Counted from the stretch's first letter, positions 190 to 59,038 are shown. The stretch: 64,000 nt of DNA from an uncultured delta proteobacterium (GCA_963790095.1 CAWBNO010000013.1:30857-94856); one strand, 5' to 3'. Numbers and translations: made by a program. Notes: a model not told the origin generated them from the letters alone.

Positions 190-459
190 GGTTAATGTAT
201 TTGAATCCCAATAGAGAGAGAACGCTCCGCGACGGCGCATATCTCTTTCAAACCGACTGAAACTTGTGCTTAAGCACCCGTAAGCCCGAGCCGTGCCAGA
301 GTTATAAAGAACAATTCGTCCATAAAATATCCGATGGATGTCTTAAACCATAATTTCATTCGGCTCGGTCTAACGTGTGCTAAAGCCCTTCAAACAGCCA
401 GTCGGTTTCCAAGAGAAACGCGCCGTCGCTTCGGTGTACCGAAACCAAATGCGTTTGCC
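190..459 (-). repeat. Family-A structured repeat, copy 1 (~270 nt imperfect palindrome; MITE-like element or structured RNA)
   Basis: Terminal inverted repeats of the type GGCAAACGCATTTG / CAAATGCGTT. A long interrupted stem: GCGACGGCGC..AAACCGACTG pairs with CAGTCGGTTT..GCGCCGTCGC, and CTTAAGCAC..CCGAGCCG pairs with CGGCTCGG..GTGCTAAAG. Near-identical copies lie at 24165-24436 and 53786-54053. The strand given is the one on which stem mismatches become G-U pairs. Confidence 0.85.
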
Positions 460-680: not shown

Positions 681-809
681 TTTGTTATGATAGAAATGAC
701 GGAAGTGAAGGACGGGCTTAAACATGGACCTTCAAAATTGCTGGTATGTGATGATGGGCGGGCAGGTCGCCATTGGAATTAAGGTGTGTGATCAAAGAGG
801 ATAACCCCT

Positions 810-1652
810 ATGGCAAGGTTGAAAATACTTCCACCCGGCAGCACGAAGCATGCCAGGGCCCAGGCCCGGGGAAAGTTGTTCCAAGGACTGGTGTCTCAGG
901 TGCTGCACCACTATGGATATGATATCCACCGTCTTTTTCATGCAAACACCCCTGAAATGGAAGTCGAGGTAGAGGGAACGCATACACCCACCGGCGCGCC
1001 ATTTTATGCGGATTGCACCTTCGGTGAAACACCGGTGTCGGCTTCCCACCTTCAGGCATTTTACGGCAAGTACATGGGAAGATGGCATCAAGAGAAACGA
1101 TGCCACGGACTTTTCATGGCACTGCCCGGCATCGACCGCGCTGCCGGAGAATTTTATCGAGATTATATCGCGAAAAATTCAGACGTCACCGCAGTTCTTT
1201 ATGAAGAAGATGCGGTTCTGAAAGCAGTTTCAGCGTCCTCGGGGATTGCCGGCCCGGACGTCCAGGCAAAACATGTTTTCCGGAATATGGGAACTTCCGG
1301 CGATCCTTTTCTGTTTTACACGGAAAAAGGCGTGTTCTGGACCTGGATCACCCCATCAAAAGGCAAAGAAAATCCAAACAGATTTGCGCTTTTCGACAAA
1401 ACCGGTTCTTTGGTATCCGATCCGTCGGTCTTCGCTTATGTCACGAAGTTGTATCCGAAACTTGCCGATTTCGATCCGATTGTTCGTGAAGAGACCGTAG
1501 GTCTTCAGCCCGGTCTGTTTCAAGATACCGATGAAATTGTCGAAGTCCGGGGGGAACGGAATGCTTTGGGTACCACTACCCTGCATCCCCCGGTGACTTT
1601 GTGGGAAGAAAGTCTTTGCTCAACGCACTCGAGGTCTTTGCAGAAACCGTAA
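810..1652 (+). CDS. PD-(D/E)xK (Mrr-like) restriction-endonuclease-fold protein, probably the N-terminal part of a frameshifted fusion with the next ORF
   Basis: 280-aa ORF. The N-terminus (GKLFQGLVSQVLHHYGYDI ... EMEVEVEG ... FYADCTF) resembles the Mrr catalytic-core layout by eye. The last 52 nt overlap the next ORF in another frame. Confidence 0.55.
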   Translation: MARLKILPPGSTKHARAQARGKLFQGLVSQVLHHYGYDIHRLFHANTPEMEVEVEGTHTPTGAPFYADCTFGETPVSASHLQAFYGKYMGRWHQEKRCHGLFMALPGIDRAAGEFYRDYIAKNSDVTAVLYEEDAVLKAVSASSGIAGPDVQAKHVFRNMGTSGDPFLFYTEKGVFWTWITPSKGKENPNRFALFDKTGSLVSDPSVFAYVTKLYPKLADFDPIVREETVGLQPGLFQDTDEIVEVRGERNALGTTTLHPPVTLWEESLCSTHSRSLQKP

Positions 1653-3637
1653 CCCATAAAGAAACATCCCATCGCGGCATTCTTTTCGAAGGGCCTTCGG
1701 GGTGGGGGAAAAGTTCATTGGTTCTGGCCAGTGTTGCACGACTGGAGAAAATGGCGCATTTTGCCGTTGCCATAGATTCCCGAACCGCCGCATCGTCCAA
1801 TTTCATTTTGTGTTTAATGCACCATATCATGGAAAAGTACCAAGACTTCGGGGGTCTATTCCCCCAAGGGGACCGATCCGGATGGATCACCGGCCATGAC
1901 CGTGGGGTTAAGTCGATTCTCGAAATGGGAAACGTACTTGAATCCCATGGCAAACTGCTGTTCATTTTCTTGGATCAGTTTGATCACTGTTTCTCTTTGC
2001 CTGGGGTGATTGAACCCATAAAAGACCTGTTCCTTAAAATATGCCGTGAACAGACGAATATCGTTCTGGGATTTTCGTGGAACAAGGATCTTGTTTCAGG
2101 GGCACGTGGATCTTACAAAGAATTGGGTGATGCGGTTACGGATAACAGTCAAAAAATGATCCTGAACAATTTCTCCGGCGCCGAAACCGATGCATTGTTG
2201 AAAAAACTGAGCGATGAATTGAATGAAACCTTAATCGAAGACCTCCGATGGTTCCTGATGGAATTTTCACAAGGATATCCCTGGCTCCTGAAAATGCTCT
2301 GCTTTCATGTCAAGGTGGCCCGGCAGTCCGGGATTCCACAGGACCATATTGCCGGCAATCTTTTGAGTGTCGAAGAACTTTTCCAGCATGACCTGGAAAA
2401 GCTGTCGGATAAAGGGCGGGTTTCTCTGAGCCATATCGCCCAATTTGCACCCATGCGTCCGGCGGAATCACCCGGCATGCTCGCCCCTCATGTTGTTCAA
2501 AATTTAATCGACCAGAAGTTGGTCCAAAAAATCGGCAATACCGTGGACGTCTCCGGAGAGGTCCTTAGAAATTACCTGAATACCGGCACCCTGCCGTTTC
2601 AGGACAATCCCATCCTCGGAGCCGCCGTCGGGGATGTTGTTAACGCTGTCAATATCCTGCATGCAGCCAACGGCTCACTGGATATTTCCCAATTAAAGGG
2701 CCGGACCGGCCTGGCTGGAGCCCTGTTTTACCGGGTTGCAAAAGATATGGATCAACTCGGGGTTGTCAGATTCGGCAAGGGGACGGCATCCCTGGAAATA
2801 GCGTTGCCTGCCGGGCACCCTGATATGGAAGCATCATTGAGAAAACACCTCCGGGACAGGCTTCGAGGCATTCGTTCGGTTCAGGGGCTTTTAAAAAATT
2901 TGGAAGAAAAAAATACCCTTGACATGGATGACGTATCCGCTCTGTTCGAAATTTCGGTGTCCTACAGATCCGTTGCCGGTAAAGCCGGGTTGAAATATGC
3001 CCGTATTTTGGCGGAATGGATGGACTTTGCCGATCTTGCCGTTTGGAATAAAAAAAATAGAGTGCTCGCTTTCTTTGACCCGGCAACAGAAATCCGAGAG
3101 CGTCGCCTCCTGTTGCCCAAAAGACGTGGATCTAAAATCCCGCAGATCCAGTATTCCCCGGTTGAAGAGATGGCGGAAAGGCTTTTCCAGGCGCTTCAAG
3201 GGGACGGCCGGGTGGATTGGACCGGTTTTGGCAAAAATGCCGTTTTTAGAACCCTGGCAACCCTGGAAGACCTGGGTTTCATCGTTCGGCGGGCGCCATT
3301 GATTAAAATGCTGCCCAAGGGGCAAGAATTCGTGCAGAATATGGACAAACGTCCTGCACTGTTTGCAGAAGGGGCCTTGCAGATGCCCTCGTTTCCAATT
3401 TTCATGGAGATACTCGAATCCCATCGGTTTAAAGGCAATACACTTTTGGGGCTCGGTGTGGAACTCAAAGAGAAGCTCGGCACCAACTGGAAGGACAGTA
3501 CCGCCGAAAACATCGCCAAAATTATGCTCGATTGGGCGCGTCATGCCAAACTCGCTCCGGGGGTGTTTGCCCGGATTCGAAAGGGACCCATAAAAGGGTG
3601 GAAAAAGAAGGATGACCGGCAGATGGCCCTGTTTTAA
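1601..3637 (+). CDS. P-loop NTPase of the AAA_16/STAND type with C-terminal winged-helix-like segments
   Basis: Walker A GPSGWGKSS, Walker B-like LLFIFLDQFD and a GYPWLLKML motif. The GTG start has no visible SD. The frame is open back to 1535 and reads ...ASPGDFVGRKSLLNALEVF, an FxGR(E/K)xEL-type pre-P-loop motif. That argues the true N-terminus lies upstream. Confidence 0.7.
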   Translation: MGRKSLLNALEVFAETVTHKETSHRGILFEGPSGWGKSSLVLASVARLEKMAHFAVAIDSRTAASSNFILCLMHHIMEKYQDFGGLFPQGDRSGWITGHDRGVKSILEMGNVLESHGKLLFIFLDQFDHCFSLPGVIEPIKDLFLKICREQTNIVLGFSWNKDLVSGARGSYKELGDAVTDNSQKMILNNFSGAETDALLKKLSDELNETLIEDLRWFLMEFSQGYPWLLKMLCFHVKVARQSGIPQDHIAGNLLSVEELFQHDLEKLSDKGRVSLSHIAQFAPMRPAESPGMLAPHVVQNLIDQKLVQKIGNTVDVSGEVLRNYLNTGTLPFQDNPILGAAVGDVVNAVNILHAANGSLDISQLKGRTGLAGALFYRVAKDMDQLGVVRFGKGTASLEIALPAGHPDMEASLRKHLRDRLRGIRSVQGLLKNLEEKNTLDMDDVSALFEISVSYRSVAGKAGLKYARILAEWMDFADLAVWNKKNRVLAFFDPATEIRERRLLLPKRRGSKIPQIQYSPVEEMAERLFQALQGDGRVDWTGFGKNAVFRTLATLEDLGFIVRRAPLIKMLPKGQEFVQNMDKRPALFAEGALQMPSFPIFMEILESHRFKGNTLLGLGVELKEKLGTNWKDSTAENIAKIMLDWARHAKLAPGVFARIRKGPIKGWKKKDDRQMALF

Positions 3638-3872: not shown

Positions 3873-4313
3873 TTGACAGGAGTGACGAATTTGCTTCTTT
3901 TCGACGGGACATATCGGTTGCAACGGCAGGGAGACGCCCCTTCAAAGTTGGGTCGTAAATGGGCCTGCGCATGGCGCTTGAGGGTCTTTGATTTTTCGAA
4001 AAAATATCCGGACGTTCAGCATCTCAGACCGTACGCCGTTGTGGCCACCCAGACCGGAGAAGGGATATTTAAGACAACCTGCGCCGAAAGTCTGGGAAAT
4101 AGAATATGCCGGGACTTTGATCTGAAAGTCGACGAAATCCTCTGGGTCGAGCATTATCCGGATGAGCCGGCCCTGTATGTCGCCATATTTTCTCCCAAGT
4201 CCTATTATGGAACGGAAATATTTTATGACGTCGATTGGCGGCCCATCATGCCCAATGAACTGGACGCCATCCGTCCCTTAATGCCGGAAATCGAAGATTT
4301 CCAGTGTCCATAG
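3873..4313 (+). CDS. hypothetical protein (146 aa; start possibly TTG 3891 after AGGAG)
   Basis: Clean ORF with no recognisable motif. AGGAG lies 8 nt before TTG 3891. It sits directly downstream of the nuclease/NTPase ORFs. Confidence 0.4.
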   Translation: MTGVTNLLLFDGTYRLQRQGDAPSKLGRKWACAWRLRVFDFSKKYPDVQHLRPYAVVATQTGEGIFKTTCAESLGNRICRDFDLKVDEILWVEHYPDEPALYVAIFSPKSYYGTEIFYDVDWRPIMPNELDAIRPLMPEIEDFQCP

Positions 4314-4704
4314 CCCTCCTTTTTCCTTGCCATTGGAAACCAGATGGTGGATACTAATTACCCAGATTCCCCTGAAAAAGGGCCTCTGTGGGTAAATAGT
4401 ATCCATATGGATCCAGGTTCCTGAAAAAAAGCTCGGTTGAGGAGTTCAGGGTTCCACGTTCCGGGTTGAAAAAACTCGTCGATGGGATGCCGGCTCCAGG
4501 GTGACCTCAAAACCGCTTCACCCAATAGGTTGTGGCAGGTATTTCCTATTCTTATCAATAGGGTGCGCAGGTTTAATCCGATGTAACCCTTGAACGTTGA
4601 ACCCTGAACCCGGAACCGATCCGTCGCGGAAAAAGCCTGTATCCAACAGGGGGAGGTTCGGAAAAATTGACAATGGCATCAGATTTGCATTAGTGCGTAC
4701 CGTT

Positions 4705-6454
4705 ATGCCGAATAAAATTAAACATAACAGATTTTGGGCCGGTGTGCCGCCGTGGATATTTATCGGCGCCGTGGTGGTCCTGTTTCCGATTTTTGCCTTT
4801 ATCACCGTCCAGAACATCCACCGCCAGAACCAGAACAACACCCGCCTCTTGCTGGAAAAGGGGGCTGCCCTGATCCGGTCTTTCGAGGCAGGGACAAGGA
4901 CAGGACTGGGAATGAGCCGAAACGAATTCCAGCTCCAGAGACTCCTTGCCGAGACAGCCCAGCAGCCCGACATTCTATATCTTTTGGTCACCGATGTAGA
5001 CGGCAGGATCCTTGCCCACGACAACCCCAAGCATTTGGGAAAATACCATGGCAAAGGTTTGGATCTTAAAAGGATTTCGAATCTTAAAACGGTTCAGTGG
5101 CACATCGTCTCCACCACCAGCGGGAAGAAAATATTTGAAGTGTTCAGCAGATTCCTGCCCCAGGAACGAAGCTTTAGTATGGGGCCCGGCCGCATGATGA
5201 TGCATCTGTGGTTTCAACGGGGGATGGATGAACGAATGGATGTCCCGCCGCCCACGCCGATCATCTTCGTGGGGCTCGACATGACGTCCATCGAAGAGGC
5301 TGTCCGGACTGATACCCGGCATGCCGTTATCATGGGCATTATCCTACTTATGGTTGGATTTGCCGGCATCATTCTTTTATTTTTGGCCCAGAGTTATCGG
5401 GCGACACGGATGTCCCTCTCCAGGATAAAAGCCTTTTCCGACAACCTGGTGGAGCACATGCCCATCGGCTTGGTGGCCACCGATGACCAAAAAAGGATTA
5501 CCTCCCTCAACCATGTGGCCGGAACGATTCTGGGCCTTTCCGCCGAAGCGGTCATGGGGGAAAATGCAGCGGACGTCCTGCCCGAGGATTTGTGGCAGAT
5601 GCTCAAAGACCTGGATATGGAAAAAGGAGTTGTTGAAAAGGAGATGGATTGTGTCGTTGGCGAAGGGGGGATGATCCCCCTTGAAATCAGCGCGACACCA
5701 CTGAGGGATGAAAACGGAACGTTTCTCGGGGATGTGCTCCTGTTCAAGGATCTGAGCGAAGTCCGTTCTTTGAGAAAAGAGATTGCACGGAGCCAGCGTC
5801 TTGCCTCTGTGGGAAGACTTGCCGCCGGTGTTTCCCATGAGATACGCAACCCCTTAAGTTCCATCAAGGGGTTTGCCACCTATTTCAAGGAAAGATACCA
5901 TGATGTTCCGGAAAACCAACAGATCTCCAACCTCATGATTCAGGAAGTCGACCGGTTGAACCGGGTGGTGGGTCAGCTTCATCGAGTTTGCCCGGCCCAT
6001 AAAAATATCGAGAAAATCGATCCCCGTCGAAGCCTTTTTAAAGGATTCTCTCAAACTCATCGAACGGCAGGCTTCGGAAGCGAACATCGACATCAAAACC
6101 CGCTTTGATCTTGAAATAGACACGGCGTTTTTCGATCCGGACAGGATCAACCAGGTCCTTCTGAATCTGTATCTGAACGCCATCGAATCCATGGACCATG
6201 AAGGAACCATGACCGTCGTACTGGAAAAAGATGTGAAAAAGAACGGCATTGAAATCCGGGTTTCGGATACCGGCGCCGGCATCGATGAAAACGATCTTGC
6301 CCATGTTTTCGATCCCTACTTTACCACCAAAGCATCCGGCACTGGTTTGGGATTGGCCATCGTTCACAATATCGTAGAGGCTCACGGCGGGGAGATAAAG
6401 GTGGAGAGCCGATCGGGGCAGGGGACCACGGTTCGTATCGTATTGCCCAACTGA
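4705..6454 (+). pseudogene. ZraS/AtoS-like sensor histidine kinase, split by a +1 frameshift between the DHp and HATPase domains
   Basis: ATG 4705 opens MPNKIKHNRFWAGVPPWIFIGAVVV (TM). PAS-like segment and H-box HEIRNPLSSIKGF. After ...RLNRVVGQL the homologous sequence (I)EFARPIKI...NQVLLNLYLNAIES...GTGLGLAIVHNIVEAHGGEI continues in the next frame, which is open from 5960. The intact paralogue is at 49007-50761. Confidence 0.85.
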
Positions 6455-15400: not shown

Positions 15401-15475
15401 GGTCCCATCGTCTAGCGGTTAGGACGCCGGCCTCTCACGCCGGTAACGGGGGTTCGATTCCCCCTGGGATCACCA
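15401..15475 (+). tRNA. tRNA-Glu (anticodon CUC)
   Basis: Cloverleaf: acceptor GGTCCCA/TGGGATC. Anticodon stem CCGGC/GCCGG with loop CTCTCAC. T-arm GGGGG-TTCGATT-CCCCC. Encoded CCA. Confidence 0.93.
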
Positions 15476-24138: not shown

Positions 24139-24164
24139 GCAAAACCATAATTCGCTAAAGGGCA

Positions 24165-24436
24165 GGGCAAAAGCATTTGAATCCCAATAGAGAGAGAACG
24201 CTCCACGGCGGCGCATATCTCTTTCCAACCGACTGGAACTTGTGCTTAAGCACCCGTAAGCCCGAGCCGTGCGAAGGTTATAAAGAATAATTCGTCAAAA
24301 ACATATCCGATGGATGTTTTAAATCATAATTTCATTCGGCTCGGTCTAACGTGTGCTAAAGCCCTTCAAACAGCCAGTCGGTTTCCAAGAGAAACACGCC
24401 GTCGCTTTGCTGTAACGAAATCAAATGCGTTAACCC
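24165..24436 (-). repeat. Family-A structured repeat, copy 2
   Basis: Aligns end to end with 190-459 (roughly nine in ten positions by eye), same strand. It lies 140 nt upstream of the AOR start. Confidence 0.85.
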
Positions 24437-24586
24437 TGCGCTAAAGAGGTAACCGCATTGAAAAAAAATATGATTTATGAGATAGTCCCGGCAGGTATGG
24501 AAAAACATCGATCATGGAGAAACGGTGAGGATTGATCCGGGGAAACCTTTATCCCAGAATTGAAGGTGTACATTTTTAATCATTTT

Positions 24587-53785: not shown

Positions 53786-54053
53786 GGGTAAGGCATCTCA
53801 TTTCGGTACAGCGAAGCGACGGTGTGTTTCTCTTGGAAATCGACTGACTGTTTGAAGGGCTTTAGCACGCGTTAGACCGAGCCGAATGAAATTATGATTT
53901 AAAACACCCATCGGATATTTTATCGATATTGTTCTTTATAACTCTGGCACGGCTCGGGCTTACGGGTGCTTAAGCACAAGTTTCAGTCGGTTGGAAAGAG
54001 ATATACGCCGTCGTGGAGCGTTCTCTCTATCGGGATTCAAATGCGTTTGCCCT
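53786..54053 (+). repeat. Family-A structured repeat, copy 3 (inverted relative to copies 1 and 2)
   Basis: Reverse complement aligns end to end with 190-459 and 24165-24436. It lies 201 nt upstream of the hydrolase start. Confidence 0.85.
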
Positions 54054-54158
54054 GCTATTTCAGAAGATTCTTCTCCAATTAAGTCGGGGAAGCGGGAACA
54101 AGGATTTGAGGATTCAATGGGACGTTTGTTCTCTAAAGGCGTAAGTTGGCAAAATACG

Positions 54159-57493: not shown

Positions 57494-57517
57494 CTTATGG
57501 TGAAGGAGACATCGATC

Positions 57518-59038
57518 ATGTTGGGAAAATTCAGTAAATATACATTCAATTTCGGTTTTATTTTTTGGTTCGTTCTCTTGACATCGGCTTTAATCTTTTT
57601 GCCCGCCTATGATGCGTCTGCGTCGACGGAGGTGGTACTGGAGTGGACGCCAAACACCGAACCTGATTTGGCCGGCTATAAAGTATTCTGCCGGGAGGAC
57701 GGGCAATCCTATAATTATACCACCCCATCCTGGTCGGGAGCAGACAACTATTGTACCATATATGATCTGAATGAAAATAAGACTTACTGCTTTGTGGCAA
57801 GAGCGTATGACAGCGAGGGGTTCGAGAGTGGAGACTCCGAGGAAGTGTGTCACATACCGACGGTAATGCCCGGCAATCTGCCGCCTGTCGCAAATGCCGG
57901 TCCGGATCAGACCGCTGACCAAGACCAGCTTATCACCCTGAACGGATCTAATTCAACGGATCCGGATGACGGTATTGCCGCATATCATTGGGCCCAAACC
58001 GGCGGATTTCTGGTCACCCTTTCCGACGCAAACGGCCAACAGCCGACGTTTACAGCCCCGGATGTCGGGACAGAGGACGCTTCTTTGATTTTCGAGTTGA
58101 CCGTTGTCGATTACGGCGGTCTGGAGAACACGGATTCGTGTGTCGTGAATATTTCCCGGCTCAACGAGCCGCCTGACGCCCACGCCGGCACCGACCAGAC
58201 GGTGGATGAAGGGAGTGTTGTTGCCTTGGATGGAACTTCTTCACTGGACATCGATGACGGCATTGCCGCTTATTCGTGGGTCCAGATCAGCGGTCCAGCG
58301 GTCAATCTTTCAGATCCGGCTTCTTCTCAGCCCACCTTTACGGCCCCGAATGTGGAACCGGAGGGTGCGTCACTGACGTTCGATCTAACCGTAACCGACT
58401 TAGGAGGGCTCCAGGACACGGACTCAAGCATCGTCAATATCAGCCGGAAAAACGATCCTCCAACAGCAGTGGTTGCTGAAGAATACCAGGAGGTCAATCC
58501 GGGTGCGAAGGTCACATTGGACGGGTCTGGATCCATTGATGCCGATGACGGCATTGCATCGTATGTCTGGACCCAGGCGGACGGAGATCCGGTCACCTTG
58601 TCAGACCCCACATCCGCAGTAACGACTTTTTTCGCTCCTGAAACAGATGAGAATGGGAGCAATCTATCCTTCCAATTGAAGGTTAAGGATGCCGGCGGGC
58701 TTCAAAGCTCAGCCGATTGTTCGGTTTACGTAGCTCCTACCATAGACGAACCAACGGTTCCAACCGTAATGATCCAACGGTTCCTATCAATAAGCCGCCT
58801 GTCGCGGGTTTCAGTTTTAAAAGCAGCAAATTAAAAGTGACATTCACCGACGGCAGCATCGACAGCGACGGAACCATCGTGTCCTGGTTTTGGGATTTTG
58901 GCGACGGCACGACCAACACGCCACAGAATCCCAGGCACCGGTACCGTAAACCGGGTGAGTATACAATAAAACTCGAAGGTTACCGATGACAGTGGAGCCG
59001 TTGATTCCATATCGAAAAAGGTTACTGTTTCCAAGTAA
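57518..59038 (+). pseudogene. secreted Fn3 + 3x Ig-like (PKD/K319L-like) repeat + PKD-domain protein, interrupted by two compensating frameshifts
   Basis: AAGGAGA SD lies 8 nt before ATG 57518. Signal/TM segment, then an Fn3-like domain (LEWTPNTEPDLAGYKVF). Three 96-aa repeats. The terminal PKD domain (WFWDFGDGT...HRYRKPGEYTIKLEVTDDSG) can only be read by shifting frame near 58770 and back near 58976. Confidence 0.8.
57881..58744 (+). repeat. three tandem 288-nt coding repeats
   Basis: Units start at 57881, 58169 and 58457. Each encodes PP.A.AG.DQ...LDGS.S.D.DDGIA.Y.W.Q..G..V.LSD......TF.AP.....L.F.L.V.D.GGL. Confidence 0.85.

Follow-up and report, generated by a model that had tools for sequence, protein, structure and literature searches.

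Two open reading frames (ORFs) that overlap out of frame in DNA from an uncultured delta proteobacterium raise the question of whether they are two genes or one, and of whether their product is an antiviral protein, a restriction enzyme or an ordinary cellular factor. They lie at positions 810 to 3637 of a stretch of 64,000 nucleotides (GCA_963790095.1 CAWBNO010000013.1:30857-94856), referred to here as the window, from whose first letter positions are counted. A preliminary description of the window had proposed a single-chain protein with a nuclease-fold head, a STAND-type nucleoside triphosphatase (NTPase) and a C-terminal sensor, that is, an architecture like that of the Avs antiviral proteins. 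Proteins that join a nuclease, a STAND module and a sensor are a main class of prokaryotic innate immune receptors, and to our knowledge almost all described nuclease-STAND receptors have repeat-type sensors and were found through defence islands. The protein considered here is a nuclease-STAND single chain with a winged-helix tail, which sets it apart from the known kind. On balance we lean towards the reading that it belongs to a defence-type, nucleoside triphosphate (NTP)-gated nuclease family, domesticated in this lineage, probably nuclease-dead, and broken in the window.

One gene, interrupted at a G tract

The upstream ORF (810-1652, 280 aa, frame 0) starts with ATG and the downstream one (1601-3637, 678 aa, frame 2) with GTG, with an overlap of 52 nt. 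Inspection of the sequence bore out these coordinates as first described, together with the lack, in front of GTG 1601, of any Shine-Dalgarno sequence comparable to the AGAGGA that precedes the ATG. Frame 2 is indeed open upstream to 1535, and the FVGRKSLLNAL-type stretch noticed there reads ...PGGTECFGYHYPASPGDFVGRKSLLNAL. When both ORFs were conceptually fused, 359 homologues were found, the best 120 of which had E values of 0 to 1e-246; nearly all of these 120 are single chains of 935-960 aa aligned at 100% coverage, the nearest having 98% identity and a length of exactly 942 aa. In the protein alignment, homologues share the start MARLKIL or MGRLKIL at the position of ATG 810, and relatives read EIVEVRGG(T/P)ECF where the window copy changes frame within RGG. 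DNA alignments show GGGGGG at this point in the window but GGGGGGG in a 98% relative (L001) and a 79% relative (L002), and a codon-level view of the tract region covered 22 relatives. Adding one G gives an intact protein of 942 aa, which agrees with the predicted single chain of ~940 aa and with the full-length homologues. Since nearly all of the best-listed homologues are full-length single chains and L001 and L002 have seven G residues, the region 810-3637 is a single gene encoding 942 aa, whose frame is broken by a G7 tract that is one G short, and it should be annotated as one gene or one pseudogene rather than two. A run of five C residues (1587-1591) was also considered as the site of the frameshift and was ruled out, as the alignment points to the G run.

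The overlapping frames would also be accounted for by two separate genes, by programmed frameshifting during translation or transcription, or by a G tract that varies in phase as a regulated switch; the tract is kept as G7 in five of six close relatives, and homopolymer tracts can be contingency loci. Against this, all relatives have one uninterrupted ORF through the tract, which led us to reject two genes and a programmed frameshift and which goes against the refuting case named in the preliminary description, that homologues are always two separate genes. Moreover, CGG GGG GAA, as read from the sequence, is not a slippery X XXY YYZ site, the tract is broken by GGA in L027 and does not occur in other clades, and GTG 1601 has no ribosome-binding site. 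We regard this whole group of explanations as highly improbable.

The G6 tract of the window may mean that the gene has recently become a pseudogene, or it may be a sequencing error in the homopolymer. Pointing to an assembly error, the missing G sits in a homopolymer, and at least one further conserved gene is frameshifted in the window. Pointing to a real lesion, nine other G/C runs of seven in the window are not shortened to six in the assembly, and decay is frequent elsewhere in the family, with stop codons, frameshifts or insertions in about 8 of 69 copies. In-frame stops occur at about 11455 in L040 and at about 2135 in L068, one of them directly before the SQGYPWLLK motif, and frameshifts at about 11805 and 12060 in L070, about 10920 in L074 and about 12430 in L006; one of these four frameshifts, in a genome of the window clade, arose through a small tandem duplication. 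Insertions are found in L067 (12100-13028, ~0.9 kb) and L077 (10420-11783, ~1.4 kb), and the inserted ORFs have no Pfam match. If the frameshift of the window is real, only the 280-aa N-terminal fragment would be made efficiently, because GTG 1601 lacks a ribosome-binding site.

Domain architecture and distribution of the family

The family of the restored protein is uncharacterised and has a constant architecture, consisting of an Mrr_cat-type head, a small beta domain, a STAND NTPase and a tail of winged helices and AAA_assoc_C. Searching 1.84 billion proteins with a profile of the NTPase and tail gave 662 representatives (50% clustering), of which 403 reached E<=1e-30. For almost every full-length hit the aligned region begins at residue ~250-270, which implies an N-terminal part of constant length (~255 aa), and this constant module rules out effector swapping within the family. 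An AlphaFold2 model was built from an alignment of 69 sequences, with a mean predicted local distance difference test score (pLDDT) of 83.4.

In the model, residues 1-132 form the alpha-beta-beta-beta-alpha-beta-alpha-beta core of restriction endonucleases (pLDDT about 84-90), with helices at 13-34 and 78-94 and strands at 37-46, 51-58, 64-71 and 99-105. Foldseek searches of the Protein Data Bank (PDB) with the head alone gave weak but consistent matches to the nuclease domains of MspJI (8.7e-4), EndoMS (probability 1.0), XisH, FokI, Cap4 and AspBHI; PDB profile searches with the whole family and with the N-terminal domain gave nothing significant. The Pfam family Mrr_cat (PF04471) matches 22 of 30 homologous N-terminal domains at E<=0.01, and 8 of 10 full-length homologues at 22.3-38.5 bits, all eight above the cut-off of 21. 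The Mrr/PD-(D/E)xK-like layout seen in the sequence is upheld by the homologues' scores, the modelled core and the structural matches. The window head keeps the acidic residues E51 (960-962), E53 (966-968) and D68 (1011-1013), and within ADCTF (residues 67-71) Thr70 (1017-1019) stands at the position of the relatives' catalytic lysine. The lack of the expected lysine is therefore real: the D...(D/E)-x-K triad is incomplete in the window copy, and the whole window clade has Thr or Ile. The head is followed by the small beta domain (residues 145-220 in the model), which is present in all family members.

In the NTPase module, Walker A (GPSGWGKSS, 1691-1717) and Walker B (LLFIFLDQFD, 1955-1984) can be read directly from the sequence. 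The P-loop core and helical domain take up residues 268-530, the helices residues 457-530, and a first winged helix follows at about 2408-2584 (residues ~534-592). SQGYPWLLK (2267-2293, residues 487-495) is invariant and lies within the helical domain; we infer that it corresponds to the GxP motif of STAND NTPases. G298, G300, K301, S302, S303 and D389 are invariant in the 69 sequences, and Walker B has the form hhhhDQFE, with Gln directly after Asp and an acidic residue two positions on. The Pfam family nSTAND1 scores 26.5-38.5 bits in homologues, six of the ten tested exceeding its cut-off of 27.1, and 28.4-40.5 bits in distant relatives, with a match spanning just the first 190-230 of 379 profile positions. 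Foldseek with the whole model against the PDB found PAB2304 (2qen), SSO1545 (2fna), ORC2/Cdc6 (1w5s), RuvB and Avs4 (8dgf), and NCBIfam gave sub-threshold matches to RuvB, Hda and Orc and nothing better. The assignment to a STAND-type NTPase by its Walker and GYPWLL motifs is borne out by these results.

The several winged-helix-like segments described after the NTPase are present in the model, which has three further winged helices (~607-662, 689-755 and 782-834) and then a helical end. AAA_assoc_C reaches 37.2 bits in homologues and exceeds its cut-off of 27.6 in 7 of 10; the tail also has weak matches to IclR, MarR and TrmB helix-turn-helix families and a very conserved basic motif, LLLPKRRG. 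No repeat-type sensor family (TPR, WD40, LRR, FGE) was found in the tail with Pfam or in the model. In the window copy and the homologues tested, Pfam detected no GerE (LuxR) or Trans_reg_C (OmpR/SARP) output domain and no SRA, YTH or Mrr_N-type reader. The idea of a C-terminal sensor domain of the Avs kind is weakened by this result, as the tail consists of winged helices and AAA_assoc_C and is not of the repeat type.

Scanning one genome per species turned up 158 coding stretches; the 78 distinct loci retained from them all come from metagenome-assembled genomes (MAGs), mostly of Desulfobacterales. Other hosts include Dehalococcoidia, Acidobacteriota, cyanobacteria, Verrucomicrobia, Bacteroidales, a Clostridia MAG, Methanosarcinales, Thermoplasmata and Heimdallarchaeota. 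Distant relatives, 24-28% identical and with the same end-to-end architecture, occur on Acinetobacter baumannii chromosomes (hhalign E 3.5e-62, aligned end to end), on the conjugative Burkholderia vietnamiensis plasmid pBVIE01 and on a Streptomyces plasmid, where the copy adjoins tyrosine recombinases. The A. baumannii and Burkholderia relatives match NA-iREase1 (PF22722) at ~1e-7 yet retain E-C-K, and several members carry the NCBI product name 'restriction endonuclease'. The family is small, but it extends across bacteria and archaea and has relatives in culturable Acinetobacter, Burkholderia and Streptomyces. In the literature on AAA_assoc_C (PF09821), nSTAND1 and iREase we found no description of this architecture.

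Among known systems, Avs proteins with PD-(D/E)xK heads (Avs4, 8dgf) are alike in having, in a single polypeptide, a restriction-endonuclease-fold head, a STAND NTPase and a long C-terminal part, and Foldseek aligns the whole model to Avs4 at E 7e-7 but with a TM-score of just 0.18. The present family differs from them in its tail of winged helices and AAA_assoc_C instead of TPR-like repeats and in having one lineage that is vertically inherited with an eroded active site; it also has no match in PADLOC. The framework for Avs proteins is a census of 589 STAND clades (Lee et al. 2026, PMC13581612). The NTPase core also matches the nSTAND1 clade (PF20703; Kaur et al. 2021, PMC8195603), for which the restriction-endonuclease fold is among the listed effector classes, so fusion to such a domain is shared. 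In the nSTAND1 systems described so far, however, the effectors or adaptor domains vary and the sensors are of lectin or FGE type, whereas the N-terminal module is constant here and the match is confined to the first half of the profile. Structurally, the NTPase, lid and winged-helix module comes closest to the archaeal proteins PAB2304 and SSO1545 (ATPase_2) and to Orc1/Cdc6 (E 2.5e-8 to 1e-7, TM on target 0.5-0.57), and homologue P0022 has a weak ATPase_2 match in Pfam; these proteins are ~350-400 aa long and have neither a nuclease head nor an extended winged-helix array. NA-iREase1, the NACHT-associated inactive restriction endonuclease 1, is a precedent for a degenerate restriction-endonuclease-fold N-terminus on STAND NTPases, but the window copy does not match its profile. 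Mrr and the type IV enzymes share with the homologues the Mrr_cat head, with (V/A)-E-C-K-x-Y, and the presence of winged helices in the same protein. In Mrr itself the winged helix is N-terminal, the nuclease is C-terminal and an NTPase is lacking; the window copy differs further from it in having neither an Mrr_cat match nor the lysine.

The Desulfobacterales locus and the question of domestication

To describe the genomic setting, the neighbours of 81 loci were clustered for synteny. Desulfobacterales copies are always at the same locus, as the annotated loci also indicate: on the 5' side, DAHP synthase/prephenate dehydratase, a 136-aa ORF, a hexapeptide transferase and an AMP-binding enzyme precede the STAND gene, and on its 3' side follow a 140-aa ORF, a sensor kinase, a sigma-54 response regulator, LolA and NadA. 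Outside this lineage, no shared neighbour was found in the 81 loci. The active site divides along the same line. Every non-syntenic, scattered member has E51-D53...A-E-C-K, while syntenic members have D-C-K, D-C-R, D-C-T/I (the window clade), A-C-R, A-S-G, V-S-R, V-C-R, V-C-G, A-C-K or E-C-R; Walker A, Walker B and SQGYPWLLK are invariant in syntenic and scattered members alike. In a neighbor-joining tree of the NTPase and tail, from which the nuclease domain was excluded, the syntenic genes form one clade, sister to the copy of the Clostridia MAG and apart from the clade of all other E-C-K members. Taken together, the tree and the motif table imply that the catalytic motif changed at least five independent times in the syntenic clade.

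The ratio of nonsynonymous to synonymous substitution rates (dN/dS) within the window clade is 0.2-0.45 and is alike in all four domains, compared with 0.10-0.31 for neighbouring genes in the same genome pairs; at larger distances it is 0.17-0.20 for the gene and 0.06-0.18 for its neighbours. These values indicate purifying selection, but with evolution about twice as fast as in most neighbours, and their likeness across domains means that decay is no faster in the nuclease-fold domain than in the others. In the Desulfobacterales lineage that includes the window, the gene is fixed at one chromosomal locus and inherited vertically under purifying selection. The patchy distribution across domains of life, the carriage on plasmids, a catalytic site strictly preserved in non-syntenic members and the frequent disruption fit a mobile, dispensable conflict-type gene, without proving one. 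It is this family-level contrast, between canonical, mobile members and syntenic, eroded ones, that we consider the part of most interest, and the Desulfobacterales branch would be a rare natural experiment on an immune-type STAND protein that is no longer mobile.

Canonical members, with an intact E-D...E-C-K, would most likely act as an NTP-gated switch in the manner of Avs-type STAND nucleases. A ligand, either nucleic acid or an invader protein, would be bound by the winged-helix tail and release autoinhibition, ATP-bound NTPase modules would oligomerise, and the nuclease heads would be brought together to cut DNA. Nucleic acid is a plausible ligand because of the winged-helix tail and the ORC/Cdc6-like structural neighbours, and such a ligand would bring the family closer to the NTP-dependent restriction enzymes treated below as a rival reading. 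In the window lineage the protein is probably no longer a nuclease, because Lys70 is replaced by Thr or Ile and sister clades have lost an acidic residue too. Conservation of the ATP switch and tail suggests a retained, non-catalytic role that depends on the NTPase and winged helices, for example NTP-gated DNA binding or regulation. A more far-reaching proposal, which we advance tentatively and with the chances leaning against it, is that a defence STAND nuclease was captured as a resident gene of the chromosome in one Desulfobacterales lineage, where nuclease chemistry was discarded at least five times, the ATP switch and winged-helix tail stayed intact and the protein was exapted into a non-destructive, NTP-gated DNA- or ligand-binding factor, the canonical relatives being an undescribed Avs-like family with a winged-helix-array sensor. 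If true, the capture would be old enough for synonymous sites to be saturated, and the clade would offer a natural series of exaptations of an immune receptor.

A number of observations weigh against this account of a domesticated defence nuclease. The window copy itself remains below the Pfam thresholds for nSTAND1 (1.4e-5, 25.4 bits), AAA_16 (8.6e-5, 23.5 bits against a cut-off of 32.6) and AAA_assoc_C (3242-3553, 1.4e-5, 26.1 bits), and has no nuclease match in Pfam, with Mrr_cat missing even at E<=1; as Mrr_cat is absent from it but present in homologues, its membership in the nuclease family is transitive. The N-terminal module is invariant across the family, whereas many conflict-system STAND proteins swap theirs, and no tblastn match was found in 50,697 phage records. 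PADLOC 2.0, applied to the window ORFs, five homologues and three distant relatives, gave no AVAST or whole-protein match (Avs7-21, described after 2023, lay outside this search), and its models were matched by only a handful of 118 neighbours at 15 scattered loci. Copies P0090, P0120 and that of A. baumannii stand among metabolic or housekeeping genes, and the Zixibacteria copy stands amid metabolic genes as well. As evidence for a role in defence, the genomic contexts of canonical members are mixed: a clear defence island was seen for two of the six relatives examined (P0088 and P0084), the rest being mixed, mobile or metabolic. Furthermore, the neighbor-joining tree carries no support values, and every syntenic genome is a MAG. 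The mechanism outlined above for the family is carried over from Avs proteins by analogy. Finally, some PD-(D/E)xK enzymes use residues other than lysine, and loss of the canonical lysine is no proof of lost catalysis in a clade that keeps the acidic residues.

Three other explanations of the protein have to be set beside the favoured one, each of them in our view unlikely. The least unlikely of the three is that the whole family consists of NTP-dependent restriction enzymes of a type IV flavour, in which the winged helices would read modified or foreign DNA, the NTPase would assemble on DNA and the Mrr_cat head would cleave. Mrr itself combines a winged helix with Mrr_cat, and the tail contains three or four winged helices, a conserved basic motif and weak helix-turn-helix matches to IclR, MarR and TrmB. 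Structurally, the NTPase most resembles the DNA-binding ORC/Cdc6 proteins and archaeal ATPases that carry a winged helix. Several members are named restriction endonucleases by NCBI, and one adjoins GmrSD. However, the best PADLOC match to a type IV model, mREase_IV at E 0.0096 in the Streptomyces relative, is not significant and stems from one distant relative; the only other PADLOC 2.0 hits were weak nuclease-domain matches to PDC-S02. In the 81 loci, no methyltransferase or modification gene is consistently nearby, winged helices bind proteins too, and this reading does not account for an active site lost repeatedly among the syntenic genes. It is slightly more doubtful that the family never served in defence, being instead a cellular DNA-transaction or regulatory factor, such as a STAND regulator with winged-helix output like the MalT class, whose occurrence in defence islands is coincidental. 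This would suit the long-term synteny and purifying selection in Desulfobacterales, the constant architecture without effector swapping, the many copies amid metabolic genes and a tail that is very conserved across phyla. Yet the family is patchily distributed across phyla and domains, and only within one lineage do copies have neighbours in common. Some copies reside on plasmids or close to recombinases, and two are surrounded by clear defence islands; all scattered members strictly conserve the catalytic motif, roughly one copy in nine is disrupted, and no LuxR/SARP-type output domain is present.

The third explanation, which we find a shade less credible still, is that the window encodes an active Avs-like antiviral protein, whose head would kill the infected cell or cut phage DNA after phage sensing by the C-terminal part, and that the frameshift is a sequencing error. 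The tripartite layout of nuclease, STAND and C-terminal part, with its Foldseek match to Avs4, is the portion of the proposed Avs-like architecture that stood, and E51, E53 and D68 are retained. A change from G7 to G6 is a typical homopolymer error, and at least one other conserved gene in the window is frameshifted. Some canonical relatives are indeed in defence islands: P0088 lies between an MmeI-like type IIG restriction-modification gene with HEPN_AbiV and an AbiEii toxin-antitoxin pair, and P0084 adjoins a SEFIR/TIR protein, GmrSD and a large DEAD/MZB helicase. The expectation of defence islands around homologues holds for these two, but not for the other four of the six canonical relatives or for the window lineage, whose conserved locus has biosynthetic and two-component genes as neighbours; P0112 and P0081 are among toxin-antitoxin or mobile-element genes. 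An active Avs protein is further disfavoured by Thr or Ile at the catalytic lysine position in the whole clade and the loss of an acidic residue in sister clades, by a housekeeping-like synteny that persists over divergences down to 46% identity, and by a tail that is not a repeat sensor. No model in PADLOC 2.0 corresponds to the proteins tested, which both counts against an Avs protein and agrees with the preliminary description in assigning no named family. The domesticated defence nuclease thus remains the reading that we prefer.

Downstream gene and other features of the window

The ORF at 3873-4313 (146 aa), previously regarded as an orphan, proved to be a conserved gene of 140 aa whose conserved start, from the alignment, is TTG 3891 (Table 1). 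It is present in 37 of the 81 loci, all of them syntenic Desulfobacterales, with dN/dS of 0.13-0.28, and searches of Pfam, NCBIfam, PADLOC and the PDB gave no match for it. An obligate partnership with the STAND gene was considered and rejected, as the 140-aa gene is confined to the syntenic clade and is missing in one subclade that keeps the STAND gene.

Table 1. Coordinates of the features of the STAND gene, its downstream neighbour and the miniature inverted-repeat transposable element (MITE)-like repeat
Feature	Position	Strand	Basis
Shine-Dalgarno-like AGAGGA	796..801	+	8 nt before ATG 810, read from sequence
PD-(D/E)xK (Mrr_cat-type) nuclease-fold domain, residues 1-140	810..1229	+	AlphaFold2 model, Foldseek, Pfam matches of homologues, motif table
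Small beta-rich middle domain and linker, residues 141-245	1230..1544	+	AlphaFold2 secondary structure, conserved columns
G6 tract, site of 1-nt deletion, frame 0 to frame 2	1549..1554	+	Relatives have G7, encoding R-G-G
STAND/AAA+-type NTPase module, residues 249-600, frame 2	1553..2608	+	Pfam, Foldseek, invariant columns
C-terminal array, residues 601-942 and stop	2609..3637	+	AlphaFold2 model, Pfam, invariant columns
Conserved 140-aa gene	3891..4313	+	TTG 3891 start, AGGAG at 3877-3881
MITE-like copy, window	199-455	+	
MITE-like copy, window	24163-24439	+	
MITE-like copy, window	53786-54054	-	
MITE-like copy, L001	2351-2626		
MITE-like copy, L002	13353-13629		

The sensor histidine kinase gene that follows is split in the window into ORFs at 4597-6108 (503 aa) and 6191-6454 (87 aa) and is a single gene of 586 aa in L002. 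An extra C near 5983 (CATCGAG in the window, CATGAG in the relative), outside any homopolymer, makes it the second frameshifted conserved gene within 6 kb. Two ORFs with PKD domains (57494-58834 and 58687-58989), on the same strand and with an overlap of 148 nt, may be a third frameshifted gene.

Upstream of the STAND gene, TGGCTTGTTAGATGCT (about 620-635) fits the GG-N10-GC spacing of a -24/-12 promoter, 190 nt from the gene and near the gene for a sigma-54-dependent regulator. As a candidate sigma-54 promoter it was dismissed as a probable chance match, being present only in the window and the 98% relative. The MITE-like repeat, ~265 bp long with terminal inverted repeats CAGGGCAAACGCATTTGA ... 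TCAAATGCGTTxACCCTG, has copies that are 89-93% identical and sits at different sites in related genomes; it matches no Rfam family. One copy lies 355 nt upstream of the ATG of the STAND gene and is mostly missing there in L001. A tRNA gene (15401-15472, + strand) is the sole Rfam match in the window at gathering score. Elsewhere in the family, the near-identical contigs L092 and L093 both carry P0120 and differ in the product encoded just downstream, which is a 589-aa protein without a Pfam match in L092 (10916-12685) and a 509-aa TPR/TPR_MalT-type repeat protein in L093 (7810-9339).

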